This document shows, piece after piece, positions 18,330 to 42,100 of a stretch of 64,000 bases of DNA. Under the pieces are notes generated by a model. That model saw only the letters and a program-made list of their open reading frames with translations, ran no database searches and was not told the origin of the DNA. The position numbers were made by a program, and so were the translations under genes. The first letter of the stretch is position 1. The number at the start of each line of letters is the position of its first letter. Location of the stretch: NCBI GenBank assembly GCA_963753595.1, contig CAVWCX010000001.1:96001-160000 (forward strand), in the 5' to 3' direction. The stretch is from Candidatus Methanoperedenaceae archaeon (lineage in GTDB: Archaea > Halobacteriota > Methanosarcinia > Methanosarcinales > Methanoperedenaceae).

Positions 18330-19895
18330 ATGGAAAAAAGGCATATCTTGCTTATCGTGGCGTTACTTTCTGCCATAGTATTCGTAATGCCAAATATTTA
18401 TTCTTTATTTGCAGGCCAGCACTGGTTTTATGATACTGGAGTGTCCTATTGCCTGAAATGCCATTCTGATATCAAACAGGAGCTTGATTCCCAATTCCAT
18501 CATACTTTTACATGCGAAAACTGCCACTCTATCAATACGAATTCAAATGCAACGCATGGAAATGTGGTTTCACCCAGATGCCTTGATTGCCATTCTAATC
18601 CCGGGCGTCTAGTGACGGATTCAAATGGAAATACATTCCTCACTCCTCTTGCATATGTTTTTGGAGAAAATGTAACAAATGCGGAATCACATAAGCCTTT
18701 GATTACAGGGGCCAATTCATCACCTCTTATGAAAGGTGAAAATGAAGCATGTTTTTCCTGCCATACCAGGAAATCGATCAGCATCAATATACGTTATGCA
18801 GATACATACAGTTTCAATTCCCGCAGGGCTGATAACGGCACATGGCAAATGTGGGATTATTCAAAAAATGCCGAAAATTCAGTAAATTTGATTATCCAGG
18901 CCAACGAATCTTCAGGAAAGCATTTGTTTTTATCATTAAATCAATTAAAATGTGAAAAATGCCATCCGAATACTGGAGACGAGCTCACAAGTTCCTCCCA
19001 TCATACATACTTTTCATGCAACTCCTGCCATCAGCTGTATTCGACATACCATGTATCAAGTATCCCCCCATGTCTTGAATGTCACGGCACAGAGCCAAAG
19101 ATGGTCACTGATATGCAAAAGAATACATATGTTGCATCTGCAGCTAAAGTCTATTCAGAAAATACGATAGGGGCAGATGCACATCTCCCGTTTGTCCTGG
19201 GCGCAAATTCAAGCAATTTATCTGCAGGCAGTAACATTGCCTGCTTTTCATGCCATTCCGGTTTAAATAATAAGATAATTTTTTCAAGACCGGAATATAT
19301 TGAATGGGATGTTGAAAATTCAGGCGGCACATGGACGATACAAAATCTTGCATTGGGAGAAACAAAGGAAGTGAAGGTTACAAAATATTCAGATGGAAAA
19401 TCCCATAATATCTCTATGGATACAGGTTGCATATCCTGCCACGATGACATAAGGCAGGCAGTCTCTAATGGCGGACATTCTAACGAGCAGTGGGGAATGA
19501 AACATAATTATTCCGATTATAGCGATATGAACTTTTATTGCAGGTCATGCCATGATCCATTTACTAAAGATAACTTTAATAATTCTCCATATCCAGCCTA
19601 TCCTTTTAACTCCATCAATCATGGTTCTATTAAAATACTATGTATGGATTGTCATGGCAGATCAGGAAGTTTGTCAGTAAGCTTCAATGGGATCATGAAG
19701 ATTCCATCTTACAACAGTACTTCCATGGGCAATATTGAGAGTTCGATCAGCCTCCAGCCGGATTTTATTCAATCGTACCTGTGCATAGCATGTAAGAACA
19801 CGGGGAATCCTGTTCCGAATACTTCATTACACTTTAAATTATATACTGAACCTGAGGTAAAGGTTTATGTCAATGGGACGCAACGATATCCGTAA
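18330..19895 (+). CDS. dodecaheme cytochrome c: three fused tetraheme modules, last site CxxCK
   Basis: PNIYSLFAGQHWFY; 11 CxxCH plus CIACK; internal module starts SGKHLF and GKSHNI. Confidence 0.9.
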   Translation: MEKRHILLIVALLSAIVFVMPNIYSLFAGQHWFYDTGVSYCLKCHSDIKQELDSQFHHTFTCENCHSINTNSNATHGNVVSPRCLDCHSNPGRLVTDSNGNTFLTPLAYVFGENVTNAESHKPLITGANSSPLMKGENEACFSCHTRKSISINIRYADTYSFNSRRADNGTWQMWDYSKNAENSVNLIIQANESSGKHLFLSLNQLKCEKCHPNTGDELTSSSHHTYFSCNSCHQLYSTYHVSSIPPCLECHGTEPKMVTDMQKNTYVASAAKVYSENTIGADAHLPFVLGANSSNLSAGSNIACFSCHSGLNNKIIFSRPEYIEWDVENSGGTWTIQNLALGETKEVKVTKYSDGKSHNISMDTGCISCHDDIRQAVSNGGHSNEQWGMKHNYSDYSDMNFYCRSCHDPFTKDNFNNSPYPAYPFNSINHGSIKILCMDCHGRSGSLSVSFNGIMKIPSYNSTSMGNIESSISLQPDFIQSYLCIACKNTGNPVPNTSLHFKLYTEPEVKVYVNGTQRYP

Positions 19896-20877
19896 AAAAA
19901 TCAAGAACCCTTTACTTGATGTTAATGAAGATGTATCTGTCAGGCCTTTTGAGCATTATTCGTTCTTTGATAAAATAGGCGTTGCCAGTGCTTTGATCAT
20001 GTCGATGGCGATATTATTAATGTCAATCATTTCTTTTTATATTGATTTTGTAAAATCAAATTATCTTTATACATTGATAGATTTAATTATTTTTGTATTC
20101 TCTCTGGGAGCTGTATACTTTGTCTTAAATGCTTTCAAGAAAAGAGTGATCACTGACCTATTGATAGATACGGCATTCCAGGAAGGAGTTTATTCAAGAC
20201 TTGCGCCTTTGGTTGAAAATATAGCCAGGTCGCATGTAGATACAAATATTATTCTGGACAGGATGTCCAATATTGATTTGAAGGTCGAAAATATTTTAAA
20301 AGAAGGGTATGCAAGGGATATAAAATCAGGTGACGTTTTACAGGAGCCCATTGCTGTTGCAACCTCAATTAAATTCGCGATCAAATCGATTTTTTTAATA
20401 GTTGTGACAATGGCTGTTTTTATGTTCCTTTTAAATTTTAATCTCGCTGGTATTACTCCCTATGCTGTTCTTTTGGTATTTATCGCATGGTGGGGATTTA
20501 TAACAAACGAATATAATTTATGGAAGGAGTCTTCTGCCTGGGCAATGGTTTTTCTCCCAATACTTGTGATACCGGTAGCCGTCATGCTTTTAGCAAATCT
20601 TTTGAATTATAACGTATTAATGGCGATACTATATGTATCTGTTGGATTATATACATTTGTTTATTATATCTGGGCTGTATATGCATCAACAGGAAGCCTG
20701 CCATTAATCGCGACAAGAAAACAAGAACAGGTAGAAAGTGAATTTTTCGCTTTACAACAAAAAGGAATGCTGAAAAAACTTTTTGATTTATCAATTTCAA
20801 GAGTTGAACAAAAATTGCAGGAAGACAAGAAAAAGCAGGAATCAGATTATATCTGGAAAAAATCTTTGAAGGACTGA
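19867..20877 (+). CDS. integral membrane protein (2 TM + helical loop + ~4 TM), paralog of 50812
   Basis: TLIDLII.VFS and WW..[IF]T.EY.L motifs shared with 50812. Confidence 0.8.
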   Translation: MSMGRNDIRKKIKNPLLDVNEDVSVRPFEHYSFFDKIGVASALIMSMAILLMSIISFYIDFVKSNYLYTLIDLIIFVFSLGAVYFVLNAFKKRVITDLLIDTAFQEGVYSRLAPLVENIARSHVDTNIILDRMSNIDLKVENILKEGYARDIKSGDVLQEPIAVATSIKFAIKSIFLIVVTMAVFMFLLNFNLAGITPYAVLLVFIAWWGFITNEYNLWKESSAWAMVFLPILVIPVAVMLLANLLNYNVLMAILYVSVGLYTFVYYIWAVYASTGSLPLIATRKQEQVESEFFALQQKGMLKKLFDLSISRVEQKLQEDKKKQESDYIWKKSLKD

Positions 20878-21429
20878 CAAACTTTCATTCTTGAATTTAA
20901 TTACATCACGAGATTTTTGGATTTTACGATATTTTGTTTCAGTTCTTTTCATTGTTACGTTTCTATATTTCTTAACTTCTTTTGTTGCCGGTATTATATC
21001 ATATTTAAATTCCGTGATGGTCTCGTTATAACTTATTTCAATTGTTTTCATTTCTCCGGAAGAAATATAATTTCCTGTCGAAGATATTTTGGTGACCAAT
21101 GGAATAGAAATATCTTTTTTGGTAGTAATACGAAAATCCACATTAAAATTTCCATTTATTGTGTCATTATTCTTGATTGTAACCCATACATGGGATGGGG
21201 AAGGAGATATAGAGTTTGAATATTGGGCATCAATTACAATGTAATCGATTGGAACGTCCTCTATGTATGATTCGTTAACTGTGTAATTATAAAAATTAAA
21301 ATCTATATACGGTTCCTCAAATGTATAATATTCTGTATCAGTATAAGGTACGGATGTATTATAAGGTACATTTATGCAGATGAATAGGAAAAATGCAAGG
21401 AAAGCGTATTTATGGTTTATTCTTTTCAT
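20842..21429 (-). CDS. membrane-anchored hypothetical protein with long beta-hairpin-like stalk (paralog of 51721)
   Basis: N-terminal TM; Y/T/E-rich N-arm and K/R-rich C-arm; ESYI..VP and TKEV.K motifs shared with 51721. Confidence 0.7.
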   Translation of the reverse strand: MKRINHKYAFLAFFLFICINVPYNTSVPYTDTEYYTFEEPYIDFNFYNYTVNESYIEDVPIDYIVIDAQYSNSISPSPSHVWVTIKNNDTINGNFNVDFRITTKKDISIPLVTKISSTGNYISSGEMKTIEISYNETITEFKYDIIPATKEVKKYRNVTMKRTETKYRKIQKSRDVIKFKNESLSVLQRFFPDII

Positions 21430-21433
21430 AATA

Positions 21434-22978
21434 TCATATAAAAGTAGTTGCAGTCTCTTCCACCAAATAAATAGCTACACCTTTTCGTGTGAGGTAATGG
21501 AAACGATCAGGGGAATCAAACATGATCCCTCCTCCATCGTAGATAAAGATAATAGAATCATATCTCTTTCCGTCTTTCCCATCCACAACAACGAATTGCC
21601 CGTCATTGTTTGAAGCCCCATAGACCAGATGCTTGTTATCCGGGCTGAAAAGTAAAGAACCTTCTATAATATCATCATATTGTTTTCCTATATTGCCGTC
21701 AATAACATCTTTTAAACCATCATCATTTCCAAAATCTTCAAAATTCATGGGGACAGAGCTAAATGAAATCACGCCGCTATAAGTTGATTTTTTCTCAGTT
21801 GTTTCCTCTATCACGAACCATTTATCTTTTTCTCTTGCCGCATAAGCTACCCGTTTGCTGTCAGGGCTAAATACTGGAGTATATTTCAGGATATCATCAT
21901 ACCGCTGTCCCTCTTTTCCATCCACAACTACGAACCATTTATCGCCTTCTCTTGCTGCGTAAGCGATCCTTTTTCCATCAGGACTGAAGGTGATACTATG
22001 TTTCAATATGCTGCCGTATATTTTTTCCTCTTTTCCATCTACTACTACAAACCACCCATTTCCCTCTCTTGCTGCATAAGCGATCTGTTTGCTGTCCGGG
22101 CTGAAGATGGGAGTGTATTTCAGGATTTCATCATATGTTTTCCCTTCCTCTTCATTTTCTACAACAAACCACTTTCCGTCCTTTTTTGCTACATAAGCCG
22201 TCTTATTGCTGTCAGGACTGAACATGAGGGTGTTTGTCAGTATGCTATCATATTGCTGTCCCTCTTTTCCATCCAATACCACAAACAATTTGCCCTCTTC
22301 TCCTGCGACATAGGCTACTCGATTGCTGTCAGGACTAAAGACAGGGTAAAAACTGCTTTGAAATTTCTTATCTTCTTTTCCATCCACAACCACGAACCAT
22401 TTATCTTCCTCCCTTGCTTCATAGGCTATCCTTTCGCTGTCCGGGCTAAAGACAGGCATTTTGATGCTATCGTATTGTTTTTCTTCTTTTCCATCTACGA
22501 CCACAAACCATTTACTGCTATCATTTGCCACATAAGCCTGGCGCCTGCCATCAGGACTGAAAACCAGGTTTCTAACATTTTCATAATGAGTTTCTTCTTT
22601 TCCATTAAGTACTACAAACCACCTCTCATTCTCTTTTGCGGCATAAGCCAGGCTTTTGCTATCCGGGCTAAAAATGAAACCATTTATATCATCGTATTTT
22701 TTTTCATTTTCTCCATTCAGGACAATGAATTTCTTTTCTCCTTCAGTTTCAACATAAACAAATTGCATACTATCCGGACTTACCTTGAAAGTCTCCGGAA
22801 CCCCCGAAAAAAAACCGAATTTAACAATAAGTTTTTCTGAAATCACCCTGCCGGCTATTTCTTCATTATTTTGCGCTCTTGATGGAGTATCCCGCGAAAT
22901 ACAACCACTTGCCAATATTATTATAATTAGAATAAAAGTAATTATGTATTTTTTCATATTTAATTTAAACAAATTCAC
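21434..22978 (-). CDS. TolB/WD40-like beta-propeller repeat lipoprotein
   Basis: Lipobox ASGC; about ten ~38-40-aa repeats FSPDSKR.AYAA....WFVVVDGKE...YD.I. Confidence 0.85.
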   Translation of the reverse strand: MNLFKLNMKKYIITFILIIIILASGCISRDTPSRAQNNEEIAGRVISEKLIVKFGFFSGVPETFKVSPDSMQFVYVETEGEKKFIVLNGENEKKYDDINGFIFSPDSKSLAYAAKENERWFVVLNGKEETHYENVRNLVFSPDGRRQAYVANDSSKWFVVVDGKEEKQYDSIKMPVFSPDSERIAYEAREEDKWFVVVDGKEDKKFQSSFYPVFSPDSNRVAYVAGEEGKLFVVLDGKEGQQYDSILTNTLMFSPDSNKTAYVAKKDGKWFVVENEEEGKTYDEILKYTPIFSPDSKQIAYAAREGNGWFVVVDGKEEKIYGSILKHSITFSPDGKRIAYAAREGDKWFVVVDGKEGQRYDDILKYTPVFSPDSKRVAYAAREKDKWFVIEETTEKKSTYSGVISFSSVPMNFEDFGNDDGLKDVIDGNIGKQYDDIIEGSLLFSPDNKHLVYGASNNDGQFVVVDGKDGKRYDSIIFIYDGGGIMFDSPDRFHYLTRKGVAIYLVEETATTFI

Positions 22979-23082
22979 TTTTAATAAAGCCTTTAAGTAT
23001 ATAGATTTGGCTGAGTAATCAACCTGTATTGATTGAATGTTTTAAGCCTTATTTTCAAAATCTTTATAAGTAAATCAGTATA

Positions 23083-24372
23083 TTGTTGTGCGTGGAATTT
23101 AAACTGACTATCCTAATTATGGTATTTATTCTCTTTGCCGTTCCTTCCCTGGCTGTTGATAATGGATATGCCAGGATAGTTTATAATGTAAGGGGATTGC
23201 AGGATTATGATCTGCACTGGAACGACAGGTTCCCTCCCGGGAGCACTTTAAGAATTTATGCAGAGGCAAACGGCGTGAATCATAAGCGCCAGGTGGCAGT
23301 TGATTACATTTTTATTATTAAGGATCCAAATAATAATGTTATAGATACGGCATTATATAGCAATAGATATGAAGATTACAGGGAAAATGATTTCATGACC
23401 TATTCAAGGAATGTGCCGCAAGAGTGGGATGATGGGGTTTATACGGCTGATATACATATTTTTGACCTGTTGAATGAAACACTAATGGATACATATTATC
23501 GTGAACTTATAATGTCATATTTGAATGAGAGTGACAGGCCTGATCTTCCGGTAATGAATCGAAGCAATGCATCAGTTCTGCCGGAACAGCACATGATAAT
23601 TAAGAAAACCTTTTTTATTGACAGGTATGCAAATAAATATCCCGTTGACAGATTCAGAATAGAAAAAATCATGCTTGATAGAACAAGTGTTGCGCCAAAT
23701 ATGCCAGTTGCGGTTAGCGCCAATGTGATCAATACTTTTTATGATAAAGGTTCAACATCTATTGATTTGTTATTAGATAATAAAGTAATTAACAAAACTA
23801 CGCTGGAAATTGAAAGTTATAGTTCCAGCCAGGCTATTTTCACAGTTTCCACCGAAATTATCGGGAACCATACTGTAGAAATTATACCGACTGGAATGAA
23901 TACTATTGGAATAAATCTGTCCGGTGTCTTCATGGTGAGCGCCGAAAAAGAGATAGAAAAACCTACGGAATTTGTTTACCAGGATATACAGATAGATAAA
24001 TTAAGTGTCGAGCCAAACGGGACCGTGATTATCGCTGTGACAGTAAAAAATACAGGAAAGGAAGGAATCCAGTCTGTGGAGTTGTATATTAATGATGTCC
24101 TGGAAGAAGAAAGACAGGTAGATCTAAACTTTTCGGAAATTAAAGATATTTTATTCAATGTGACCAAAAAAGATCTGGGCGCATACAGGGTTACAGTTGG
24201 CAAATCAACTCTTAGCAAGGTTTTTTTTGTGGAATCAAGTACACCTGTTCCTTTTGTAACAGCCGGACCCAAAATAGAAAAAAAGCCGCAGCTTAAGGTC
24301 GTGATCGGCCTATCAGTTATTGTTATATTGATATATCTTTTAAGAATATATTTAAAAAATAAATGGAAGTGA
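23083..24372 (+). CDS. membrane-anchored Ig/CARDB-like domain protein (paralog of 36045)
   Basis: Signal peptide; two CARDB-like domains (V..TVKNTG); C-terminal TM; HW...[FY]PP and YP.DR motifs shared with 36045. Start codon uncertain. Confidence 0.75.
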   Translation: MLCVEFKLTILIMVFILFAVPSLAVDNGYARIVYNVRGLQDYDLHWNDRFPPGSTLRIYAEANGVNHKRQVAVDYIFIIKDPNNNVIDTALYSNRYEDYRENDFMTYSRNVPQEWDDGVYTADIHIFDLLNETLMDTYYRELIMSYLNESDRPDLPVMNRSNASVLPEQHMIIKKTFFIDRYANKYPVDRFRIEKIMLDRTSVAPNMPVAVSANVINTFYDKGSTSIDLLLDNKVINKTTLEIESYSSSQAIFTVSTEIIGNHTVEIIPTGMNTIGINLSGVFMVSAEKEIEKPTEFVYQDIQIDKLSVEPNGTVIIAVTVKNTGKEGIQSVELYINDVLEEERQVDLNFSEIKDILFNVTKKDLGAYRVTVGKSTLSKVFFVESSTPVPFVTAGPKIEKKPQLKVVIGLSVIVILIYLLRIYLKNKWK

Positions 24373-24376
24373 TAAA

Positions 24377-25114
24377 ATGGTAGCAAGAATCATTGCCATA
24401 GCATCGGGAAAAGGCGGTGTCGGTAAAACGACTATCGCTTTGAACTTGGGATTTGCTATGGCATCATTAAAAAAGAATGTCCTGGTCATAGACACTGACG
24501 TATCTCTTCCAAATCTGGATCTATATACAGGACTTGAAAAACCATTAATTACTCTTCTTGAGGTATTGAATGGCTCAGCAAATATCCAGAGCGCGATATA
24601 CTCAATCCAGATGGGGCTGAACATCCTGCCATGCGGTTCTTCGATTGAAGCTTTACGCGGTGCAGATATTGACAAATTAGGAGATATTATCTCAGAATTA
24701 AAAAACAGCGAATTTGATTTTATAATTCTGGATGTTCCTGCAGGTCTTTCCAAGTTCAGTTTATTGCCCATGACATATTCCGATGAGGTTATACTTATTG
24801 TCAATCCGGACCCGGCTTCCATATCAGATGCCCGGAAGGTAAGAACAGTATCCGGGCTTACTGATATGAAGATCACAGGCATAATTGTGAATAAATTTAA
24901 AAAGAACAATTATGAGGACATTGGAATAAAATTAGGACTGCCAGTTATCGGGGTGGTACCTGTGGATGATGCTGTCGTTAAATCCAGGGATTCAAGAAAA
25001 CCTGTAATATTACTGAAACCAAAATCTGCTCCCGCAAAAGCATTAATGCAAATAGCAAGAAAAGTATGCGGGATCCCTGAGAAAAAAAGTATTTTAGCGA
25101 GATTATTAGGATAA
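24377..25114 (+). CDS. minD: MinD/ParA-family ATPase (archaeal MinD-like)
   Basis: IAIASGKGGVGKTT deviant Walker A; DVPAG; VNK; C-terminal amphipathic SILARLLG membrane-targeting helix. Confidence 0.85.
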   Translation: MVARIIAIASGKGGVGKTTIALNLGFAMASLKKNVLVIDTDVSLPNLDLYTGLEKPLITLLEVLNGSANIQSAIYSIQMGLNILPCGSSIEALRGADIDKLGDIISELKNSEFDFIILDVPAGLSKFSLLPMTYSDEVILIVNPDPASISDARKVRTVSGLTDMKITGIIVNKFKKNNYEDIGIKLGLPVIGVVPVDDAVVKSRDSRKPVILLKPKSAPAKALMQIARKVCGIPEKKSILARLLG

Positions 25115-25116
25115 TT

Positions 25117-25732
25117 ATGGACAAGACCAAGGAAAAGGAAGTTTTGGATTTTCTTATGGATGATGGCACATGGGAAAAGACTCCCGGGAAAAAAATCGTT
25201 CAAAAACAACAGGAAATTGGAAAACCAAAAGTCAGCCAACCTGGTAAAATCCCCGAAAATCGAAAATCTGAAAATATGGGGCATATAAACGAAGTCGCAA
25301 AAGAATTTACAAATGAAGAGGTTGATAAAAAAATATAAAAAGACAGGCGATGTTTCTGAAAATGAATTTGGTGAAGTGGATTATGCTATCCTGAAATCAG
25401 TGACTTTTGGTTTTAAAACCATAAAAGAAATTGCAGAAGTGCTGCAAATAAGGACAATGGTCATTGAGAAACATATTTATAAACTTATTCAGGATGGATT
25501 TATAAAATATTTTCAATATTGTGTAATTACTTCAAGGGGAAAACAAGTAATTGAAGACTTTGTGAAAGATAATCCCGAAGATGTCTGGATGCCAATAGAT
25601 GAATTTATATTATCAGTTATCGAACAGAAAAAAGAACGAAATTTAAAGTTCCAGAAGATGGTCGATTTAATTCTTCTTATCTCCATGATAATTTTGATTG
25701 TGCTGATTATTTATTTTGGGCTCATCGCATGA
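25117..25732 (+). CDS. winged-helix protein with C-terminal TM; two overlapping ORFs (25117-25338, 25313-25732) that may be one frameshifted gene
   Basis: TIKEIAEVLQI...IYKLIQDGFI...ITSRG wHTH signature. Removing one A from the A7 run at 25327-25333 fuses the ORFs into 204 aa. Confidence 0.6.
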
Positions 25733-25783
25733 TTTTCAAAAAAGACAAACAGACTGCAGATAAGCGTATTATTGACACTTTCG

Positions 25784-25847
25784 GCCAACATTATCTTAAC
25801 GGCGCCGGGGTTGCGACCCCAGACCCCTGCGGTGCGCCGCCGTTGGC
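25784..25847. repeat. GC-rich REP-like palindromic element
   Basis: GCCAAC...GTTGGC and AACGGCG...CGCCGTT arms enclosing GGGGTTGCGACCCC-AGACCCC. Confidence 0.7.
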
Positions 25848-25894
25848 GGATTATAACATTAACAATACCTGTAATATTTCTAAGTCAAAGACCA

Positions 25895-27637
25895 ATGTAT
25901 AAAAAAATTGTTAAATTATTGGAATCGAACCAAATTCCGTTATCAATATTTTTCATTTCATTATTTGTATTTCTCAGTTTTGCAGGCACACGTATGCTAT
26001 TTTCAGATGAAGGGATAATCGTAAGCCAGTTCTATAATTTTATACATGGTTCTTTAGATTTACAAACGGCCAAAGTGAATGTGGAAAGGGGAATATATAC
26101 GACTGTTGAAAATCATATATATGGAAGATTCAGTTATTCATTGCTTATATTATCTTTACCTGTATATATTATATTAAAAAATATAGATTATTTTTATGGT
26201 GCGCATTTATTTCTTCTGCAGATATGGGCTTTAAGCGGCGGGATATGTGTTTATCTTCTCACAAAAAACTGGAAAATAAAGAATGCGGCATTAGGTGGGG
26301 TTGTATCTTATTTCATATTAATAATGGTCAATCTGCTATCATTTGATCCTATTTATTTTCCTAAATGGGGGGAAATTATATCAATTGAATTTACTAATAT
26401 TCTAATCTCTTCTTTTTTGGTTTTAATGGTATATTTCTTATTCAAGAATCTATTTAATAATAAAATCGCTATCTTCGCGTCTCTTTTTGTTATATTCGCA
26501 ACGCCCATATCCTTTTATTCAATTACGTTGAAGCATCATTCTCTTGCTCTATTATTAACTGTATTGGCATTTTATTTTTTTTATAAATACCAGGAAAAAA
26601 AAGAAAATAAGTTTATTTATTATGCTTATCTATTAGCAGGACTTTGCATCTGGACTAGAATTGCAGAGGGTGCAGCACTTCTGTTGTCCCTCCTTATAAT
26701 AGATATAGTATTTTCCAGGCGAAGCATCAAACATATTGCCTTTGTCTCAATTATTATTCTGGTCTCACTTATCCCATTTTTCATTTTCAATCAATTGATA
26801 CTGGGGAATCCGTTTTCGATCATGGAATTACGCCCCTTAAGTGATATGCCCATGAAAATGGAGATTGAAAAAAATATGATCGTGCTAAGTGAAAGTTCGG
26901 TAAAAGCCAGGCAGGTAGAACTTCTGAATAATCTTGGCTTTATCTGGAATCCAGGGATCAAGACTGCCTTTTTGGACATTATGTCGTATATTTCGATTCG
27001 AAAAATGGGAAACACGTTTGGCCTATTCTTAATAAGTCCATTCTTGATAATCGCGCTTGCGTTTGTTATAGATCGGATAAAAAAGAAAATCAAGTTAAAT
27101 GCAACAGATAAATTATTGGGACTATACGCCATAATATTTATTTTAATACATAAAAATTACCTTAAATTAATAATTACTGATACACCAGTAGTTCTCGAAT
27201 ACAGGTATTTACTTATTATGTATATAGTCCTTCTTTATTTTGGGCTTAGAATAGATAAAGTCGGGGATCTTATTGAAAATAACTATAAGAAAATAGTACA
27301 GTTATACGCAGCCGCAGTAATAATACTAATTTTATATTTTATTAATATTTTTCCTCCCCCCTTCATGAATTTATACTATTCTTTAGCGTTGATCACTTCA
27401 ATCATTTTATTGATTTCATTATCGATGAGTATTTTAATTGAGAATAAAAAATCTTTTGCTGATTTATTGGATAAAATTACATTATTTTTCATCGCATTGT
27501 CACTTGCGCAAGCTTCCATATTGCTGCTTTTTTATTACTGGGTTGTTAGTATTACCTACATTTCGCCATCACAAAATTATACTGTAGTGCCAATTATTGG
27601 GAGTATTTTGAAATGGATGTACCAGGCACTTTTGTGA
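25895..27637 (+). CDS. polytopic membrane protein, probable GT-C fold (ArnT/PMT-like) glycosyltransferase
   Basis: More than 12 TM segments; FSDE acidic motif in the first loop; N..I.GNP and EYRYLL motifs. Start moved to ATG 25895 because the upstream extension is the palindrome. Confidence 0.65.
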   Translation: MYKKIVKLLESNQIPLSIFFISLFVFLSFAGTRMLFSDEGIIVSQFYNFIHGSLDLQTAKVNVERGIYTTVENHIYGRFSYSLLILSLPVYIILKNIDYFYGAHLFLLQIWALSGGICVYLLTKNWKIKNAALGGVVSYFILIMVNLLSFDPIYFPKWGEIISIEFTNILISSFLVLMVYFLFKNLFNNKIAIFASLFVIFATPISFYSITLKHHSLALLLTVLAFYFFYKYQEKKENKFIYYAYLLAGLCIWTRIAEGAALLLSLLIIDIVFSRRSIKHIAFVSIIILVSLIPFFIFNQLILGNPFSIMELRPLSDMPMKMEIEKNMIVLSESSVKARQVELLNNLGFIWNPGIKTAFLDIMSYISIRKMGNTFGLFLISPFLIIALAFVIDRIKKKIKLNATDKLLGLYAIIFILIHKNYLKLIITDTPVVLEYRYLLIMYIVLLYFGLRIDKVGDLIENNYKKIVQLYAAAVIILILYFINIFPPPFMNLYYSLALITSIILLISLSMSILIENKKSFADLLDKITLFFIALSLAQASILLLFYYWVVSITYISPSQNYTVVPIIGSILKWMYQALL

Positions 27638-27686
27638 ATTTCCAGGTTAATGTTTAATCATTTTATTAAAAAACGTTCTTAAAATA

Positions 27687-27826: not shown

Positions 27827-27921
27827 GAGCGATAGCAAAACGAAGATTGTGTTTGCTTGATTCTTATTCTTAACAAACCAAATTGGATTTAGGGTTAATA
27901 AAGATAGGATGTGAAAAATAT

Positions 27922-29428: not shown

Positions 29429-30082
29429 TTACACTCCACCTTTATATGCCCCTTCAATTGTTTTCATGTTTTCAATCATTCTTCTTCCGGCCTGGGTCAG
29501 CATGTATACCTTCTCGCTGTCTTGCTCAATAACATTATATGATTTCAGGATACGAAGATGAAAGCTGAGTTTTGTGGCATCATCTATCTTAAGCATGTTT
29601 TTAATCTCTGTGAACTTGAGTTTACCTGCTTTATTGAGAAGTTTCAGGGTGTTTTTTCTTATTGGATTTGAAATCGCCTTAATTAAATCAGATTCAAGGA
29701 GTTGTGGATATTTATTGATCTCTGCCGTTGCTAGAATTATCCTTATCTTTGTCTGTACCTCGTCTATCTTAAATGGTTTCGTTATATAATCCGACGCTCC
29801 TGCTTTTATTGCATCCACAGCATTTTCAATTGTCCCGAATGCTGTAATTATTATTACGTTTGCCCCGGGTTTGATATGTTTTATCTCCATTAAGACATCC
29901 ATTCCCCCCATGACTGGCATAATCAGATCAGTCAAAATAACATCAAATTCTTTTTTCCTGATTTTTTCAAGCCCAACCTGGCCATTCTCGGCAGACTCTA
30001 CATTATATCCCTCATCTGTTAAAATTTCTACTAATCCATCCCGCATTTTCTGTTCGTCTTCTATAACTAGTATATTTTTCAT
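29429..30082 (-). CDS. response regulator: NtrC-like REC + ArsR-like winged HTH
   Basis: ILVIEDE, TDLIMP, ITAFGTIENAVDAIKAGASDYITKPF; then KAISNPIR...LSFHLRILK...YMLTQAG. Confidence 0.9.
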   Translation of the reverse strand: MKNILVIEDEQKMRDGLVEILTDEGYNVESAENGQVGLEKIRKKEFDVILTDLIMPVMGGMDVLMEIKHIKPGANVIIITAFGTIENAVDAIKAGASDYITKPFKIDEVQTKIRIILATAEINKYPQLLESDLIKAISNPIRKNTLKLLNKAGKLKFTEIKNMLKIDDATKLSFHLRILKSYNVIEQDSEKVYMLTQAGRRMIENMKTIEGAYKGGV

Positions 30083-30086
30083 ATTG

Positions 30087-31790
30087 TTAAACCGGTAGTT
30101 TTATTTTGAATGTAGTGCCATGATTTACTTCACTTTTCACTTCAATTGATCCATTGTGGCGTTTGATAATTCCATAGCAGATAGAGAGACCAAGACCAGT
30201 CCCATTGCTCCGCTCCTTTGTTGTGAAGAATGGATCAAATATTTTATCAAGTTTTTCCTCTGGTATGCCGCAGCCGTTATCTGATATGCTGATTTCTACA
30301 TGTTTCGGGTTTGCTGTGGTTTTAATGATTATTTCTCCATTTTCTGTAATTGATTGAATTGAATTTGTGAGCAGATTCATTATAACCTGTTGAATCCTGA
30401 CGCTGTCACCAACGATAAGAGGAAGAGGCTCAAAAAAGGTATTGACTTTTATATCTTTTACTTGAGGATTCATGATTCCAAGTACTTTACTTATCTCATT
30501 ATTTATATCAATATTACATAGTTTCAGATCTGAATTCCTTGCAAAATCAAGCAGGTCTTTCACAATATTTGCGGCCCTGTTTGCTTCATCATCGATTATT
30601 ATGAGTTTATTCTTTATTTTATCATCATCTGTCTTTTTTATCAGCATCTGGGCATAAAGGGAGATATTCCCAAGTGGATTATTTAGCTCATGGGCCACAC
30701 CTGAAGCAAGCGTGCCTATTGTTGCGAGTTTGTCGGATTGCAGAAATTGTTTTTGAAGGTTCTCCATTTCCTTCTGCATGCTTATATCCCTGATAATTCC
30801 AACCATGGCTATTGGCTCACCTTTGTAATCTTTAACCATATATACATTTAACCATATCGGAAATTTTCGATTATCTTTGTGCTTGGCCGTGATTTCCCCG
30901 GTCCAATTCCTTTTCTCTTTTATACAAGGGATTATCACTTTGCTGCCAAACTCCTGATCTGCAATAATTTCCTTGAAATGCCTTCCCTTGAACTCATCGG
31001 GAGAAACTCCGAACATATTCTCCATTGCTTTGTTGGAGTAGATGATAAGGCCGTTCATATCAGTGATTTGAACCCCGTCCGGAGCTTCTTCCACCGCAGT
31101 CGAGAGCTTCCGAAGCTCGCTTATATTTTTATTTAAGTCGTATGACATCTGGTTAAAAGCTTTTGAAAGAGTATGGATATCGTCATCAGTCGAATCGAGT
31201 TCTATTTTATATTCGAAATTCCCCCGGCCTATTTCTTCGGCCCCTTTTACAAGTGCCCGTATCGGTGCTGCAAAATAATTTCCGGCCAGATAAGCCATTA
31301 AAATTCCAAATAAGCCTACTATCAAAATGTTAAATATTATAATATCTATTTGTTTATTTATCGTTTCATTTATGGAGGTTCTATCCATTCCAATATGGGC
31401 AAAACCTTCCCTGCCGCCATAAATTGGAGCTTGGAAATCCATAATATTTCCTGTGCCGGAGCTGCTGTTACAATCGATATCAGTAACCAGGAAATCGTTT
31501 GAGTATATATGTCCTATTACATTATGAGAGGCATCGGTTAAATATACACATTTTACTTCACTATCTGCATTTATAATGTTCTTAGCAAGCTGGCTGAAGT
31601 TGGCATTACCCTCATTCGGTAAGCTCCCGCCAGCTTCTTCTGCAAGATGTTTTACAAGAAAATTTCCCCTCCCATTAAGTTCTTCGGATAATGTAGTTTC
31701 CATGTTAGACTGCATAAAGAAGATGGTCAGAATATCAATGAACACTATAATAGCAACTGTCCAGAGGATAAATTTCTTAGTTATTTCCAT
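30087..31790 (-). CDS. membrane sensor histidine kinase (HAMP-PAS-HisKA-HATPase, NtrB-like)
   Basis: Two TM segments; [10 protein letters not shown]; [10 protein letters not shown]; DNGCGI; FDPFFTTK; GTGLGL. Confidence 0.93.
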
Positions 31791-33572: not shown

Positions 33573-33574
33573 AT

Positions 33575-33605: not shown

Positions 33606-33729
33606 CTTTTTTAATGTTTTCTTGTTCAATGAAAAGTTTTTTGGATTATAATAATTATTGATTAAAGATGTTTTCATTGCGTGTAAACAACTTTATATAC
33701 TTTAGTTACATAAGTAATTTTGTGATGGG

Positions 33730-33966: not shown

Positions 33967-34535
33967 ATAAAAACATTAAATTCTTATTTATTATCTTTTT
34001 AATTTTATTCAGTATCGAGCTTGCGAAGGCAGGAGAAATGGATTGGCATAAACCTACCCCATGTTTTGGGTGTCATTTAGAAACCATAAAAGCGGATTAT
34101 GGTAGTCAGGAATGTGGTAATTGCCATGATTATAAGTATAATGTTCCTCTTCTGGAATCTGATCATAATCCAAAGATTTGTACAGCTTGCCATTTTGGGA
34201 ATACCATGGTCAATGCAAGTATGAAAGAGATCTTCCATAATGGGCACAATAATATAGAATGCACAAGATGCCATACAGAGGATAACTTTACAGTAATAAA
34301 GATCAAAAACAATGGATTTGTTTGTGTGTCCTGTCACAGCAATAAAGTACATTCCATCCATGTCAATAAAATCGATAAAATATGCAAAATATGTCATGGT
34401 TCGTGGGCAAATGGAAAAGTATATAATACCAATTCTCCATCATCAAATACGTCTAAAGAATCCGCTCAGTTAGAAAAATTCACAATATTCTATTTCATAA
34501 AATCTTTATTTAATACTATATTTGGAGTGAAATAA
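33963..34535 (+). CDS. exported hexaheme cytochrome c
   Basis: Signal peptide; CFGCH, CGNCH, CTACH, CTRCH, CVSCH, CKICH; amphipathic C-terminal helix. Confidence 0.9.
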   Translation: MNKNIKFLFIIFLILFSIELAKAGEMDWHKPTPCFGCHLETIKADYGSQECGNCHDYKYNVPLLESDHNPKICTACHFGNTMVNASMKEIFHNGHNNIECTRCHTEDNFTVIKIKNNGFVCVSCHSNKVHSIHVNKIDKICKICHGSWANGKVYNTNSPSSNTSKESAQLEKFTIFYFIKSLFNTIFGVK

Positions 34536-34985
34536 ATGGATAAAAAAAACATAACATATGTAATTATTGCATTGCTGGTTTTATCAATCGCTGGTTACTA
34601 TCTTTATCAGCATGCAACAGATATGGGTCTGGCAAAACCCGCGCTAGTATTGAAAATTTCAACAAATCTGTCCGAAAAAGGAGCTCTACAAATTAATAAT
34701 GTCACATTTGTGCAGTCAAGTGTTCCCGTTTTTTATAAGCGGGCAGACACGATACCCTCTTTTCCGGAAATAGAAGTTAACGCTCGTTTGAATGCGTTAG
34801 ATTCTGCCCCTGCGAGTTTTTGGGCATCAACACCTTATAAAGATGAAGGGCTTTATGATGTAAAGATATATTTCAGGGATGGCAAAGAACCAAAGAAAGG
34901 AGATATCCTTATTTTGCCGATAAGGATCATTGGCAGTACAGCTGTTGTAATGTATAAAACCACAGCTTTTTATGAGTGGGAGTGA
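34536..34985 (+). CDS. small membrane-anchored beta-rich protein (paralog of 16303)
   Basis: N-terminal TM; motifs shared with 16303; terminal WE. Confidence 0.75.
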   Translation: MDKKNITYVIIALLVLSIAGYYLYQHATDMGLAKPALVLKISTNLSEKGALQINNVTFVQSSVPVFYKRADTIPSFPEIEVNARLNALDSAPASFWASTPYKDEGLYDVKIYFRDGKEPKKGDILILPIRIIGSTAVVMYKTTAFYEWE

Positions 34986-34986
34986 T

Positions 34987-35946
34987 ATGAAATTGGTGTG
35001 GGTATTTCTGGTATTAGCAGGGATTTCAATATGGCTTATCCCCAATACCCTATCCCTTTTTAGCGGCGGGCATAGCTTCTATAATATTGACCCTGTCGGC
35101 TCCCAGGTTCCATGCAGTAAATGCCATGGTGATATAGACATGCAAATACATACTGGTTTTATACATAACAACTTCACGTGTTCCGATTGCCATCGTGTCC
35201 AAAAAGGTGTTCAATTCGCAAGCGGCGACAATGCTTATGAAAGGTTGATTTATATAAATGTAACAGGACCATCGAGTGTAAGGAACAGGGTTCTTGCGAC
35301 CACGATCCAGAACTACCAGAGAGGAAATTTTCCAAAATCAATCTCAGGCGAGATCACGATCGACCAATGGGCAGCCTCTGGCAACGATGAAGCGCAATTC
35401 CGTGATGAAAACGGACTATATATGGGAAATATGACCCCAGGGGAAGCTGGCATAATATATAATTATGAAAAAGAGAATGAGATTTCAACATATATCAACG
35501 GTGTCTCAAAAGACACAGACCCAACCACCTCGAATTCGGCTCTTGCTACCAGAAAAATCAATGTGAATCCATATCCATCCGGTTCTGATAATCTCACAGG
35601 CGCAGGATCAAAAGTAATAACTTCAGGTACACTGGCCCACGCATCTTCCACTGTCCTGTGTGCAGAATGCCATTCAGAGTACATTAACAATACGCCGGAT
35701 ACCATACATGAAGCTTTCATCAGGTACGGTATGGAACATAATACCAATGACAATTGTATCGCATGCCATACTTCAACCGCAGTGTCGATAAACTGGACGC
35801 GTCCGAGCACCATAGCTTTTGAAACCAGTTCTGATGGCAACAATATTACAATTAATAAAAACTTCCAGGCGAATCCAGTAAAAATAGAGACCTTTGGAAC
35901 CCAATCCGGTGATGTTTTTGCAATCTCCAATGTTACGATAGATTGA
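34987..35946 (+). CDS. tetraheme cytochrome c, nanowire-subunit-like, with central insertion
   Basis: PNTLSLFSGGHSFYNID..G.QVPC; CSKCH, CSDCH, CAECH, CIACH; SGDNA and GAGSK insertion borders as in the pentaheme paralogs. Confidence 0.88.
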   Translation: MKLVWVFLVLAGISIWLIPNTLSLFSGGHSFYNIDPVGSQVPCSKCHGDIDMQIHTGFIHNNFTCSDCHRVQKGVQFASGDNAYERLIYINVTGPSSVRNRVLATTIQNYQRGNFPKSISGEITIDQWAASGNDEAQFRDENGLYMGNMTPGEAGIIYNYEKENEISTYINGVSKDTDPTTSNSALATRKINVNPYPSGSDNLTGAGSKVITSGTLAHASSTVLCAECHSEYINNTPDTIHEAFIRYGMEHNTNDNCIACHTSTAVSINWTRPSTIAFETSSDGNNITINKNFQANPVKIETFGTQSGDVFAISNVTID

Positions 35947-36044
35947 GATAATTTATCATTATAATCATTATAAACATTATTATATACATGGAAACAAATA
36001 TAAACTATTTAAACATAACAGACCAATTATCAATCTGAGACTAT

Positions 36045-37520: not shown

Positions 37521-37525
37521 TTTAA

Positions 37526-38212
37526 ATGAAAGAAGTAGAATACACAGTACCGTTGCTTGTTTCGGGGATTCTTACATTGGTACTTTTAGGCTTTTACCTT
37601 TATAAATCTGAAAATTCTGTTTTTATGCGTCTTATTTCTTCATATTATATGAAAAACAGATACAGCAAAGCTATAATTCAAAAAGATACACGGGGAGAAG
37701 ATATTGTATTGTTAATTATCTTAATAATTCTTATATCTGGATTTGGTTTTAAACTTATTGGATTTGTAGCGGTCATATCGGATTCTATGAAGCCTGAATT
37801 CCAAAGAGGTGATCTTGTAATGATACAATCGATATCTAAAGATCCTCAAATTGGAGATATAATAACATTTAAGGCAGCCAATGTTCCAACCCCTGTGACT
37901 CACAGGGTCACCGGTGTTCAAAGTAATATTGTGGCTACCAAAGGGGATAATAATCCTCTTCCTGATGATTATGGAACAACAAAAAATGATGTTATTTCAA
38001 AAACTGTTGTTATAGGAGGCCATCCTGTCGTACTAAAAGGTCTTGGATCTCTTTTCATTCTGGATTTTTCTAAAGAAGGTAAACTAAGCAGATTCGGCGA
38101 CCAGTATGAATTCTTCCAGAATCTCTTCATGACTATAAGAACATGGGGCTATGTCATAACAATAATTGCTTTTTGTGCTTTAATATTGTCTATGTTTGGG
38201 AATAAAAGATGA
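37526..38212 (+). CDS. signal peptidase I, S26 SipW/Sec11 (Ser-His) type
   Basis: SDSMKP, GDIITF, VTHRV, TKGDNN..DD. Confidence 0.9.
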   Translation: MKEVEYTVPLLVSGILTLVLLGFYLYKSENSVFMRLISSYYMKNRYSKAIIQKDTRGEDIVLLIILIILISGFGFKLIGFVAVISDSMKPEFQRGDLVMIQSISKDPQIGDIITFKAANVPTPVTHRVTGVQSNIVATKGDNNPLPDDYGTTKNDVISKTVVIGGHPVVLKGLGSLFILDFSKEGKLSRFGDQYEFFQNLFMTIRTWGYVITIIAFCALILSMFGNKR

Positions 38213-39093
38213 ATAAAAACATATATATAATAATTATTTTTGTAGTCATTGTGACCACTTTGATTCAAACTTTTTCTTTTGTCAGCAGCGATCATCAGAT
38301 CAATCCTCCAGTACAGGACAAATGCATACAATGCCATGGAGATGTAAATACGCAATTATCCAAATCAACCCAACATTCTTCGTTCTCCTGTATAAGCTGC
38401 CATCCCAAATCAGTAATAAACCATACTAATAAGCAACCGGAATGTGAATACTGTCATGATACGCTTCAAATGAGCGATACATTTGAAGCACATTCTGATT
38501 TTGTATCTTTAAGGTCAGAAGGGTGTATAGCCTGTCATACGAACTATAATGTCATTATAAATTATTCCAGACCTGAATTCATATCATATACAATTACAAA
38601 TAATTCAGGAAATTGGGTCATCTCCAATTTCGCAACCAGTGGCATGTTGAACTTATCTTACAACGCTCTTAAGCAAGGGGGGAACCATAATATAAAAAAT
38701 GTATCCTGCAAAGACTGCCATAAAGATATTTTCGATGCAGTTTCTATGAGAGGTCATGCAGTAATTTCCGGAAAAGAAGAAAACCAGGCGCCTTATCATA
38801 ATACCAGCAACTCGACAAGCAACGAAGAATGGTGTCTTACCTGCCATAGCCCGAAAGATAATAAATTCCCAAATCAGCAGCATTCAGCACGCAGAACGAC
38901 TTGCGAAGAATGCCATGAAGCATATAATTTATCCGCCCATCCAGGAAATATCTATACCAATATCAAAACTGTTCCTCGTTTATACCGAAGCCTGGTGTGC
39001 ATATCATGTAAATCTGTAGGGTGGCAGGTACCTAACACTACATTGAAGTTCAAAGTACATCAAGAGCCATATTTCGATGTAACGATGTCGTGA
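38209..39093 (+). CDS. octaheme cytochrome c: two fused tetraheme modules, last site CxxCK
   Basis: 7 CxxCH plus CISCK; IQTFSFVSSDH leader; internal module start GGNHNI. Confidence 0.9.
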   Translation: MNKNIYIIIIFVVIVTTLIQTFSFVSSDHQINPPVQDKCIQCHGDVNTQLSKSTQHSSFSCISCHPKSVINHTNKQPECEYCHDTLQMSDTFEAHSDFVSLRSEGCIACHTNYNVIINYSRPEFISYTITNNSGNWVISNFATSGMLNLSYNALKQGGNHNIKNVSCKDCHKDIFDAVSMRGHAVISGKEENQAPYHNTSNSTSNEEWCLTCHSPKDNKFPNQQHSARRTTCEECHEAYNLSAHPGNIYTNIKTVPRLYRSLVCISCKSVGWQVPNTTLKFKVHQEPYFDVTMS

Positions 39094-39146
39094 TCAAATG
39101 TTCAACTTCATACCCCCTCGATAATATCCTTAGTATTTAAGAAAAA

Positions 39147-42100
39147 ATGAATAAGAATTTATATCTGATAGCAGTTTTGGTTTTAGCAATAACCACTATT
39201 AGTCAGACTGTTTCTTTCATTGTTGGCGACCATCAATTTTATCAGTCAGTCCAGGATAAATGCATAAAATGTCATGGAGATATCAAGGCACAGCTCTCAA
39301 CATCAGATCAGCATTCAAATTTCTCCTGTGTTAGCTGCCATGTCAGATCTGCAACTAACCATACTAATAAACAACCAGACTGTAGTTACTGCCATGCTAC
39401 ATCGCGTATGAACGATACCTTAGAAGCCCACCCGGATTTTTCACCTATGGGTTCCGAGGGATGCGTAGCCTGCCATTCAACTTATAACGCTATTTTAAAC
39501 TATTCCCGGCCAGAGTATATCGACTATACAATTAAAAATAATAATGGAAACTGGATAGTCTCTGATTTCAAAACTGTAGGAACATTAAATCTATCATATA
39601 ATGCTATGAGACGGGGGGGAGGCATAATATAAAAAATGTTTCATGTAAAGATTGCCATAAAGATATTTTTGATGCTGTTTCATTAGGAGGTCATGCCGTA
39701 GTTCTTGCCAAAAATGGAACTCAAGTGGCCTACCACAATAATTCAAACTCCACCCCTGAAGAATGGTGCAGGACATGTCATAACAATAACGATGCCAAGT
39801 TCCAGACCCAACAACATTCAGTACGAAAAACAACTTGCGACCAATGCCATGAAGTCTATAATAATTCAACAACACATCCGGGTGATTTTTTTTCGAATAT
39901 AAAGACTGTGCCTCGTTTGTACCAAAGCCTTGTGTGCATATCATGTAAATCCGCGGGCTGGCCAGCACCTGGTGGCGCAATAATATTCAATGTTCGTGAA
40001 GAACCTTATTATGACGTTTCATTCCAGATAATTTCACCTTTGAATATAACCGATTCTTCACCTGCAAGCGACCCAACCACACCCGCAGGTGTATCTCAAA
40101 TGTTTTCTGCAACACTCAACAGGTTTGCAGATATCACCTGGTATAATGAGGGGTCTGAGGTTTTCATGGTTTTGGATGTGATCTCGGCAAGTTATACAGA
40201 TTCTAAAAGAATTCCCGGGGTTTATAATATAACAGCAGTTGCCAGTGACAGTTATAATTCAGCAACCAGATCATGGACCTGGAATGTCACTAACGGCACT
40301 GGAGGCGGAATTGGAGGCGGCGGTGGAAGCAGCGGCAGTGGTGGCAGCGGAGGAGGTATAGGAAGTGGTACTTCTAACAATATAAGTGGATATGTATTCG
40401 ATAATTTTGGTTCACCACTATCAGGCGTACTTGTTCAAAATGGGAGCTATCAGAATATTACCCTGGAGTCAGGCTTTTATTCGATAACAAATATTTCCAA
40501 TGGAGAATACAACTTCACATATTCTAAAGCCGGATTTGAACCTGATTATTTTATATTTACACTTGGCGGCATTACTATGGTAAATATGAATAAGACTCTT
40601 TATGACATAACACCCCCGAATTCAGTTTCCGATCCGAATTCAACAACCGGCAACTTCTTCATAAACAATACATGGATCAATCCATCAGATATTGATTTCA
40701 AGAGCACGTCGTTCAGATATACTAATGGAAGTACACTGCAGAGCTTAAACAACTCCACTAATTATCTAAATCTCACTTTTTCACCACATTATGTCCAGAA
40801 TATTTCGGCTCAGACGGTAGATAATTTCGGGAACACGAACGAGACACTGGTATGGTTCAATGTTACTATACCAAATAACGTTCCAATACAGTCACAGATT
40901 GGAAATATAACCGGTAATGAAGGGCAATTTCTGGATCTCGCAGTATTAGCAACGGATGCTGATAATGATACCATAACTTATGGAACCAGCGCATCAAAAG
41001 GAACTTTAAATACAACTACCGGGCAATTCTTCTGGACACCGGATTATGGGGATGCAGGAACTTATGCCTGGAATTTCAATTCCGCTGATGGTTATGGTGG
41101 TGTGGTAAGTGAAAATATTACTGTGGCCATTAACAATATCCCGCTCACAATCACAAATTCATCTCCAGTTGGTGATCCCAGCACAACAGCAGGAACACCA
41201 CAAATGTTTGAAGTAACTCTCAATCGAACTGCAGATATAATCTGGTATAATAATGGGTCAGAGGTATTCAGAGCCTCAGGAGTATTATCTGCAAATTATA
41301 TTAAATCAACAGCAGGTATTGGGGTATATGATATAACTGTTAATACGAATGACGGACACGATTCAGTTTCACGGAATTGGAGCTGGAATGTTACGAATGG
41401 AAGCGTGGGAAGTGGCGGTGTAGATGGCGGGGGGGGCAGCGGTGGAAGCAGCAATAGCATAAGTGGATATGTATTCGATAATTTTGGTTCACCATTATCT
41501 GGCGTGCTGGTTGCGAATGGCAGTTATCAGAGTATTACATCTCCTTCTGGTTACTATTCAATAACTAATTTATCTAATGGAACCTATAATTTCAGCTATT
41601 ATAAAGCAGGATTTATTACCGATTATTTTGAATTTTCATTTAACGGCGCAGTTATCATAAATGCGAACAAAACACTATATGATGATACGCCGCCTGGCCA
41701 GATATCTAATCTGAATATAACAACAGGTAACTTCTATATCAATAATTCATGGATTAATCCACAAGATGCTGATTTCAGCTACACCTTGTTCAGTTATATC
41801 AATGAAACCACACTTCAAAATGTAAGTAAACCTGTTAACTACCTGAACCTCACCTGGTCGCCACACTACACTCAGAATATAAGCTCACAGACTGTGGACA
41901 TATATAGTAATATCAATCAGGCAAAGGTGTGGTTCAACGCTACCATACCCAATAATGTTCCGGTACAATCGCAGATTGGAGATAAGGTAGTTTATGAAAA
42001 TGAATCTTTGCAGTTAAATGTCACAGCTACGGATTCAGATTCTGATTTAATCACTTATGGAACAAATGCAACAAAAGGAAGCTTTAATACTTCAACTGGT

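Follow-up and report, generated by a model that had tools for sequence, protein, structure and literature searches.

Fused multiheme cytochromes as candidate end pieces of archaeal cytochrome wires in a Methanoperedens-type archaeon

Introduction

In all solved cytochrome filaments except OmcZ, axial histidine ligands come from neighbouring subunits, their number being 0, 1 or 3 depending on the filament, and protomers of the AvECN type exchange histidine ligands between subunits, as described in the accessible sections of the reports (10.1101/2023.06.12.544705; PMC11936953). The stopper or tip of such wires has been posed as an open question, and the part of that report available to us gives no candidate in the OmcE operons (10.1101/2025.10.22.684050). 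For TasA-type fibres, roles of TapA, AbpB and SipW are outlined in the accessible text of PMC9245690. Here, we describe three fused multiheme cytochromes, C12, C8a and C8b, encoded in a stretch of 64,000 nucleotides from a Candidatus Methanoperedenaceae archaeon (assembly GCA_963753595.1, contig CAVWCX010000001.1, positions 96,001 to 160,000 of the forward strand). The whole stretch is called the window, and all positions given are those of the window. As candidates for the end pieces of archaeal cytochrome wires, the three proteins are the strongest to date.

We are inclined to regard C12, C8a and C8b as minor, chain-ending subunits (cap or anchor) of AvECN-type extracellular filaments in this Methanoperedens-type archaeon. 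For brevity, proteins of this architecture are called caps below, which denotes the arrangement of modules and not a proven function. An earlier reading of the window, made from the letters and the open reading frames only (the sequence-only reading), had already proposed that they terminate or nucleate a filament and expose a lysine-ligated heme at the wire end.

Results

Organisation of the fused cytochromes

C12 (18330..19895, + strand) has 521 amino acids and consists of a signal peptide, two normal modules (module 1 from nucleotide 18411 and module 2 from 18912) and an end module (from 19392). Its 12 heme sites, 11 CxxCH and a terminal CIACK at residue 485, fall into three blocks of four. 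The final site and its tail occupy 19782..19853 (CIACK 19782-19796; TEP 19845-19853). C8a (38209..39093, +) has 294 amino acids and one normal module followed by an end module from nucleotide 38674; its 8 sites are seven CxxCH and a terminal CISCK at residue 264 (38998-39012). These motif counts bear out the three-block and two-block layouts that the sequence-only reading had given for C12 and C8a. N-x-S/T sequons are abundant in the cytochromes, with 13 in C12 and 9 in C8a.

The third protein, C8b (39147..50656, +), is far larger. A signal peptide, one normal module and an end module are followed by about 3,550 residues of repeated beta-sandwich domains. The open reading frame at its start (39147-39632) contains four CxxCH and stops at 39632; sites 5-8 lie in a second frame, which is open from 39602 to 50656 (3,643 codons), and the last of them is CISCK (nucleotides 39935-39949). 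The eight sites previously assigned to the gene at 39147 are present, although only when reading across a frame break at 39613-39619. The end of the gene had been placed near 40020, which is where the cytochrome part alone ends; the frame actually runs on to 50656, and the whole protein has about 3,800 residues. Beyond the cytochrome part, it is built of repeated domains of the CarboxypepD_reg-like, Big_9 and other beta-sandwich types. No C-terminal membrane helix was found in this giant protein, and an ESM Atlas search with its last 250 residues gave only leads scoring below 0.9, to carbohydrate-binding-module and adhesin-type clusters. Between 43000 and 50000, it contains about a dozen near-identical repeats of approximately 190 residues, a count that is uncertain because such repeats are prone to mis-assembly; the guanine-plus-cytosine (GC) content here is 0.44-0.48 and the GC skew is strongly negative.

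Normal modules and end modules

Pfam returns generic multiheme families only for these cytochromes. C12 matches the Archaeoglobus veneficus filament subunit (PDB 8e5g_A; E-value 9.9e-8) over two stretches, one covering the signal peptide and the GQH segment, the other the region of sites 3 and 4. In the alignment, the normal module has the order G-x-H, site 1, His, site 2, His, site 3, E-[AS]-H, site 4 and a beta domain of approximately 45 residues. The sequence-only reading had noted that each internal block restarts with a mimic of the mature N-terminus and that all three proteins finish with C-I-[AS]-C-K and an F....EP tail. The strings AGQHWF, SGKHLF, GKSHNI and GGNHNI and the tails are all found in the window proteins as described, and the His residues of the two internal restarts of C12 (His198 and His359) are invariant in 34/34 twelve-site proteins. 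Across the same 34 proteins, the conserved His residues outside the heme motifs are H31/58/76/121, H198/225/241/285 and H359/383/392/431 for the three modules in turn, being invariant or nearly so in modules 1 and 2.

Past site 3, the end module departs from this plan: a differing stretch leads to CxxC(K/H), after which a short tail closes with F....EP. None of the three end modules has the beta domain seen downstream of site 4 in normal modules. The profile of the end module was aligned with that of the single-module family, represented in the window by B_ECN (16842..17536, +), a single-module tetraheme filament-type cytochrome; the hhalign match (probability 89.6%, E-value 1.9e-6) covers sites 1-3 only (cap 8-82 with B 47-114). 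Because the beta domain is missing and the profile match stops at site 3, the end module is, as judged from these alignments, a divergent relative and not a standard subunit. It is always the final cytochrome module. Where relatives carry an addition after it, this is a Thr/Pro linker (P0050, P0054) or the giant protein.

Conserved His and Met residues that could serve as heme ligands are more numerous in the end module than in a normal module. In C12-type end modules, M466 is kept in 33/34 and H501 in 32/34 (R in the other 2); in the C8 types, a conserved His (AHPGN) takes the position of M466, approximately 20 residues before the last site. Such a surplus would be expected of a cap, since it must supply the ligands that a following subunit would otherwise donate. 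At the HF(K/R) position after the last site, the C8a orthologs of genomes G040, G037 and G016 have K instead of H.

The last heme site

The genome (2.89 Mb in 37 contigs, 92% complete) was scanned for heme motifs. The 33 open frames in which CxxCH occurs three or more times contain 272 CxxCH and 3 CxxCK in total, and all three CxxCK are the final sites of C12, C8a and C8b. The end-module profile matches the genes of these three proteins and no others in the genome. All 45 homologs found with the end region of C12, down to 45% identity, have a terminal CxxCK (32 with 12 sites, 11 with 8 sites and 2 fragments). The close homologs of C12 carry the source name Candidatus Methanoperedens. An exhaustive profile search outlines a small family, with 59 representatives at E <= 0.001, of which 17 reach E <= 1e-10. 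The terminal CxxCK is therefore conserved and not a product of decay, as the sequence-only reading had argued from the window.

K489 of C12 is kept in 34/34 twelve-site proteins, in which E507 and P508 are invariant, and the eight-site proteins of the Archaeoglobaceae type have K at the last site in 10/10. Among 31 distinct genes of related genomes, the residue is K in 25 and H in 6; no residue other than K or H was found at this position among genuine relatives. The homolog comparison thus gives a residue that is not random. Because only K or the canonical heme ligand H occurs at homologous positions, the last site behaves, on this comparison, as a real heme axial-ligand position at which K is preferred and H tolerated. 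The same pattern makes the attachment of heme to CxxCK plausible.

End modules in named records fall into three types: K with (Y/W)TEP (18 open reading frames), CxxCH with YTEP (5) and CxxCH with ESEPSG (15). The EP tail is, in this collection, the most general hallmark of end modules, and the lysine marks one large clade. A rough end-module tree of 115 rows (K 79, H 36), which leaves out the C8 types and includes several unrelated long-branch rows, needs at the fewest 3 changes between K and H, against a mean of 31 after shuffling; 0/500 shuffles were as low. A second tree of 145 rows (K 103, H 41 and one misaligned N), still with unrelated rows and with the C8b of the window left out, gives a fewest-changes count of 6. 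We use both trees for one statement only, that the end-module lysine appears to be a clade trait and is not scattered. At the Archaeoglobaceae-type loci L060, L070 and L073, one paralog keeps CISCK and has CTSCH inserted four residues later (CISCKRGSCTSCH...TWTEP). End modules of the Archaeoglobaceae-type family also use a CX3CH site (CLSSCH).

Frame breaks in C8b and B_ECN

The break in C8b lies at a run of seven G (39613..39619, +), where one added base restores a single frame. In 9/9 related genomes, the C8b ortholog is one unbroken frame with a signal peptide, eight sites and hundreds to thousands of further residues. Contigs from three public runs, 97-98% identical to the window, hold one extra base at the G-run (G in X1 and X2, A in X4). 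B_ECN has a 1-base deletion near 17443, which shifts its last ~30 codons, so that the called open reading frame ends at 17489. Compared with the ortholog in G040 (gac-tacgg in the window, gacatacgg in G040), the conserved C-terminus ...YGNRSGEINSATEPVVSITPAPLGFDPSNP is thus in another frame (17437-17536). Because these are two single-base losses in conserved genes, assembly error is the likeliest cause of both. A real recent or phase-variable frameshift is the less likely alternative.

Gene order and distribution

An archaeal-type (SipW-like) signal peptidase I lies directly upstream of C12 (SP1, 17581..18306, +) and a second one directly upstream of C8a (SP2, 37526..38212, +). They score 58.8 and 88.5 bits, respectively, against TIGR02228, both above its cut-off of 51.85 bits. 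The start of TM336 (19867..20877, +) overlaps the end of C12 by 29 nucleotides; by eye, its product has six hydrophobic helices and large predicted cytoplasmic loops and tail. Its paralog TM293 (50812..51693, +) is downstream of the C8 genes. TM293 likewise has about six helices by eye, with large predicted cytoplasmic regions. Neither of the two matched a family in Pfam or NCBIfam, and ESM Atlas gave no usable match. Co-occurrence of a signal peptidase and a membrane protein with cytochrome genes in anaerobic methanotrophic archaea (ANME) is mentioned in the accessible text of PMC9012536. We considered TM336 as a possible counterpart of the "8x TMH" (transmembrane helix) gene of that source, as far as its available text describes it; by eye, TM336 has about six helices, and it lacks a Trp-rich outer loop.

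The first cassette contains B_ECN, a signal peptidase, a C12-type cap, TM336, a surface protein, a MinD-like ATPase, a winged helix-turn-helix (wHTH) protein and a glycosyltransferase. B_ECN is likely the major subunit that partners C12. The second cassette contains the D and E ECN genes (single-module relatives at 27883 and 32271), a small cytochrome, a small protein, G_ECN (34972..35946, +; a tetraheme filament-type cytochrome of 324 amino acids), a surface protein, a signal peptidase, C8a, (C8b) and TM293. In all 18 stretches from 14 related genomes, this order is conserved, with the peptidase directly upstream of the cap and the membrane protein downstream. Close orthologs of B_ECN (E < 1e-46) are confined to genomes that have a C12-type cap, and adjoin it.

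The arrangement extends beyond the family. In a sample of 401 genomes of the phylum, the cap profile matched 13 genomes, 8 of them in one other family. There, an ECN of 204-241 amino acids is followed, with overlapping reading frames, by a protein of 371-423 amino acids that consists of one normal module and a four-site end module (CxxCH, CX3CH, CxxCH, CxxCK ... TEP). The ECNs of two such clusters match 8e5g over their full length (E-values 1.3e-33 and 3.4e-43). In named records, an ECN paired with a fused cap is found under Archaeoglobus, Archaeoglobaceae, Methanosarcinales, Ca. Syntrophoarchaeum, GoM-Arc1, Methanophagales and Ca. Methanoperedens; the cap follows the ECN, and the peptidase and a TM336 homolog are often present as well.

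Several neighbouring genes are recorded here. An oligosaccharyltransferase of the AglB/STT3 type (11734-13995; WWDYG by eye) heads the first cassette, a position kept in related genomes. A block of four genes (23083-27637) accompanies the cap cassette, also in other orders, and could be a filament assembly or positioning machine; its products are a surface protein, a MinD/ParA-like ATPase and two membrane proteins, one with a wHTH and one resembling glycosyltransferases (NF047440 below cut-off). Two genes on the - strand between the D and E ECN genes (29429-31790) may regulate the cluster; one encodes a histidine kinase, the other a response regulator whose C-terminal part is helix-turn-helix-like. 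A lipoprotein-like protein of 514 amino acids (21434-22978, -), with about ten repeats of ~40 residues (FSPDSKR.AY.A.E.DKWFVVVDGKE), is conserved beside the first cassette in related genomes. Two very large S-layer-type multiheme cytochromes (53865-62297; 1,849 and 958 amino acids), with long internal repeats and dozens of CxxCH sites, have C-terminal domains that resemble the CarboxypepD_reg-like repeats of C8b; the local GC content is 0.46-0.51 compared with about 0.37.

Structure and complex predictions

In the AlphaFold2 (AF2) model of C8a, the beta domain of module 1 (residues 115-153) is confident, with a predicted local distance difference test (pLDDT) score of 82-88. A complex of C12 residues 26-200, B_ECN residues 31-215 and 4 hemes scored 0.36, compared with 0.00 for the best of 3 controls; agreement between the runs is at least 2% of contacts, and the pLDDT of the partner is at least 44. 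In calibration, the passing mark was reached by 58/80 solved complexes and 2/110 mismatched pairs; the passing scores of 0.60 or under comprise 7/80 solved complexes and both passing mismatches. We regard the prediction as weak support for binding, and the pass may reflect mere likeness to the solved 8E5G homopolymer.

Discussion

A chain-ending role for C12, C8a and C8b is supported because the end module always stands last, lacks the beta domain, tolerates large additions and is encoded beside filament-subunit genes. We infer the following sequence of events. The fused cytochrome would be exported and then cleaved by a dedicated signal peptidase, the product of the gene immediately upstream. 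The normal tetraheme modules of the cytochrome, one or two in number and each starting with the G-x-H of a mature subunit, would dock on the polymer like ordinary subunits. The divergent last module would close the heme chain, with sites 1-3 kept and site 4 and the beta domain replaced by CxxC(K/H) and a short hairpin ending in F....EP. With site 4 and the beta domain thus replaced, we propose that no further subunit could be added on that side. The free side would carry the cargo, which is none in C12 and C8a, a Thr/Pro linker in some relatives and a giant adhesin-like protein in C8b. In the K clade, the last heme would be bound via the lysine as proximal ligand.

Either end of the wire is compatible with the sequences, the far tip or a cell-side anchor or starter. 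By analogy with chaperone-usher pili, a piece that donates its N-terminal segment but accepts none could be a terminator or an anchor; with an adhesin, it could equally be a tip. The overlap of C12 with TM336 and the anchorless giant favour neither end.

A number of observations weigh against a chain-ending role or against parts of it. The AF2 model of C8a as a whole is poor (mean pLDDT 64, predicted template modelling score (pTM) 0.55), and that of C12 is unusable (pLDDT 46, pTM 0.31). In a Foldseek search with the C8a model, 8e5g is the top PDB match, though a weak one (E-value 0.054, template modelling scores 0.26/0.33). In the orthologs of G040, G037 and G016 (L004, L005, L007), K, I or R stands in place of the N-terminal His that C8a has in the window (SSDH), which does not fit simple docking through that His. 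Caps occur in 20/53 genomes of the family (12/34 of the high-quality ones) against 41/53 with ECN-type genes, and thus many ECN-type cytochromes exist without a cap. The lysine is not essential, H being found at the last site in 4/9 C8b orthologs (G002, G043, G005, G004), in 1/11 C8a orthologs of other genomes (G049), in the eight-site form of G017, in P0047 and in P0064 and P0064-like proteins. No dedicated lyase for CxxCK was identified when two classes of CcmF, those of 670 and 652 amino acids, were compared over the 53 genomes. The genome has two CcmC-like genes and five CcmF-like genes in four classes, the other two being a pair of 790/784 amino acids and a class of 326 amino acids. The 670-residue class does not track the caps, with close orthologs in many cap-negative genomes and none found in the cap-positive G006, G016, G017, G020, G040, G041 and G043; the 652-residue class, present in 12 genomes (6 with caps and 6 without), does not track them either. 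According to the accessible part of PMC13046784, Methanoperedenaceae have AvECN homologs whose assembly is still to be investigated, and filaments of this kind have not yet been seen there; the filament solved from a Methanoperedens culture is of the OmcZ type, as stated in the available text of PMC13748539.

A bolder form of the proposal, which we put forward tentatively, is that these are the first identified terminal subunits of any cytochrome nanowire, members of an ancient, operon-encoded cap family common to Archaeoglobi, Syntrophoarchaeum and ANME lineages. The cap would stop growth on one side and its Lys-ligated last heme would be the electrical contact, while C8b would weld an adhesin of ~3,500 residues to the wire end and so plug the wire into a mineral, a matrix or a partner cell.

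The proteins may instead be free-standing or adaptor relays with 8 or 12 hemes, working between the membrane, the S-layer cytochromes and wires or minerals, with the giant C8b tethering the relay to the envelope or matrix. The C8a orthologs without the N-terminal His, the many genomes with ECN-type genes and no cap, the weak complex prediction and the very large S-layer-type cytochromes of the window, which share CarboxypepD_reg-like domains with the giant, would all suit such a relay. However, the internal junctions copy the mature subunit N-terminus with a His invariant in 34/34, close B_ECN orthologs and C12-type caps are strictly co-inherited and adjacent, and the end module alone loses the beta domain, an asymmetry for which a relay has no obvious need. 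We consider a free relay rather unlikely.

The nature of the last heme is a separate matter. Otherwise, CxxCK is familiar as the motif of the catalytic heme in NrfA-type reductases. The sequence-only reading had taken the last heme to be catalytic or open, that is, a five-coordinate, Lys-ligated, high-spin heme at the wire end which reduces nitrite, sulfite or metals in the manner of NrfA. The strong conservation of the lysine in the C12 lineage is in keeping with this, as is the terminal position of a site whose following His (H501) is not universal, being replaced by R in 2/34 C12-type proteins and, in several C8 types, by K, I, S or Y. Against it, PF02335 (NrfA, Cytochrom_C552) does not match C12 or C8a at E <= 0.01, where only sub-threshold matches of the NrfB/NrfH type were seen; elsewhere in the genome there is one weak, partial PF02335 match (31.9 bits). 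In these proteins, the motif stands last among 8 or 12 sites, within a wire-type module, and does not open a pentaheme core. Close orthologs exchange K and H without any other nearby change, and a large sister group has CxxCH...ESEP. Finally, spare ligands are at hand, the His of GGH (H383 / H183) and the Met (33/34) or His approximately 20 residues before the last site, and these extra candidates would suffice for four six-coordinate hemes in the end module. Nothing in the sequences points to catalysis at the CxxCK heme, and an NrfA-like site is improbable. Of the earlier proposal that the proteins terminate or nucleate the filament and expose its end heme, we therefore retain that they look like chain-ending pieces of an AvECN-type filament; an open or catalytic heme is unsupported.

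That these are duplicated filament genes in decay with a functionless last site, as the broken frame of C8b and the 1-base deletion in B_ECN might suggest, is very improbable, given that conservation of the architecture and of the last site extends across orders, that C8b is intact in 9/9 related genomes and that both breaks look like assembly errors, single missing bases of which the one in C8b is supplied in near-identical contigs.

How a cytochrome wire starts, stops, is anchored and contacts its acceptor is an openly stated gap. For AvECN-type wires of archaea, there is now a conserved, operon-encoded candidate, whose sequence logic is that of normal docking modules joined to an end module that would not be extendable. 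The subunit, the SipW-like peptidase, the cap and the TM336-type membrane protein make up a marker gene set for wire loci in methane- and alkane-oxidising archaea. If the assignment is true, the caps would also provide a rare lysine-ligated c-type heme outside the NrfA-type enzymes. We found no paper describing a cap or minor subunit of AvECN-type wires in our literature searches, and a prior mention in the original filament paper or its supplements is possible.

Comparison with known systems

AvECN, which forms the extracellular cytochrome nanowire of Archaeoglobus veneficus (8E5G), is the closest relative. The window proteins share with it the signal peptide followed by G-x-H, the tetraheme module with the same order of four CxxCH and four further His, and, in their normal modules, the beta domain that comes after the fourth site. 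Whereas AvECN has a single module and forms a homopolymer, the window proteins fuse one or two modules to a divergent end module with CxxCK/H and an EP tail in place of the beta domain, and sometimes carry a large non-cytochrome cargo. The likeness to NrfA is confined to the CxxCK motif, which makes lysine the likely proximal heme ligand; the window proteins lack the NrfA fold, have the motif last and not first, swap K for H and have no dedicated lyase identified with them among the two CcmF classes compared.

In their arrangement, the caps resemble FimH and PapH of chaperone-usher pili and TapA and AbpB, with SipW, of TasA fibres. These too are encoded beside the major subunit, can carry adhesin-like cargo, and keep one docking surface while the other is lost; a further feature shared with the TapA / AbpB / SipW system is that the operon encodes its own SipW-like signal peptidase (TIGR02228 above cut-off). 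There is no relation in sequence or fold, and the comparison is an analogy only. Unlike strand-donation fibres, the joints in the window proteins would be made by heme-histidine coordination and heme stacking and not by donation of a beta strand. Nearest in concept is the hypothetical OmcE "stopper" Dsoud_2415, which the accessible sections of its report (10.1101/2025.10.22.684050) present as a subunit-like cytochrome whose extra ligands would satisfy the interface heme and end the polymer. As far as those sections go, Dsoud_2415 is bacterial, unrelated in sequence and encoded outside the OmcE gene cluster, whereas the window proteins are encoded within the cluster and are conserved across archaeal orders.

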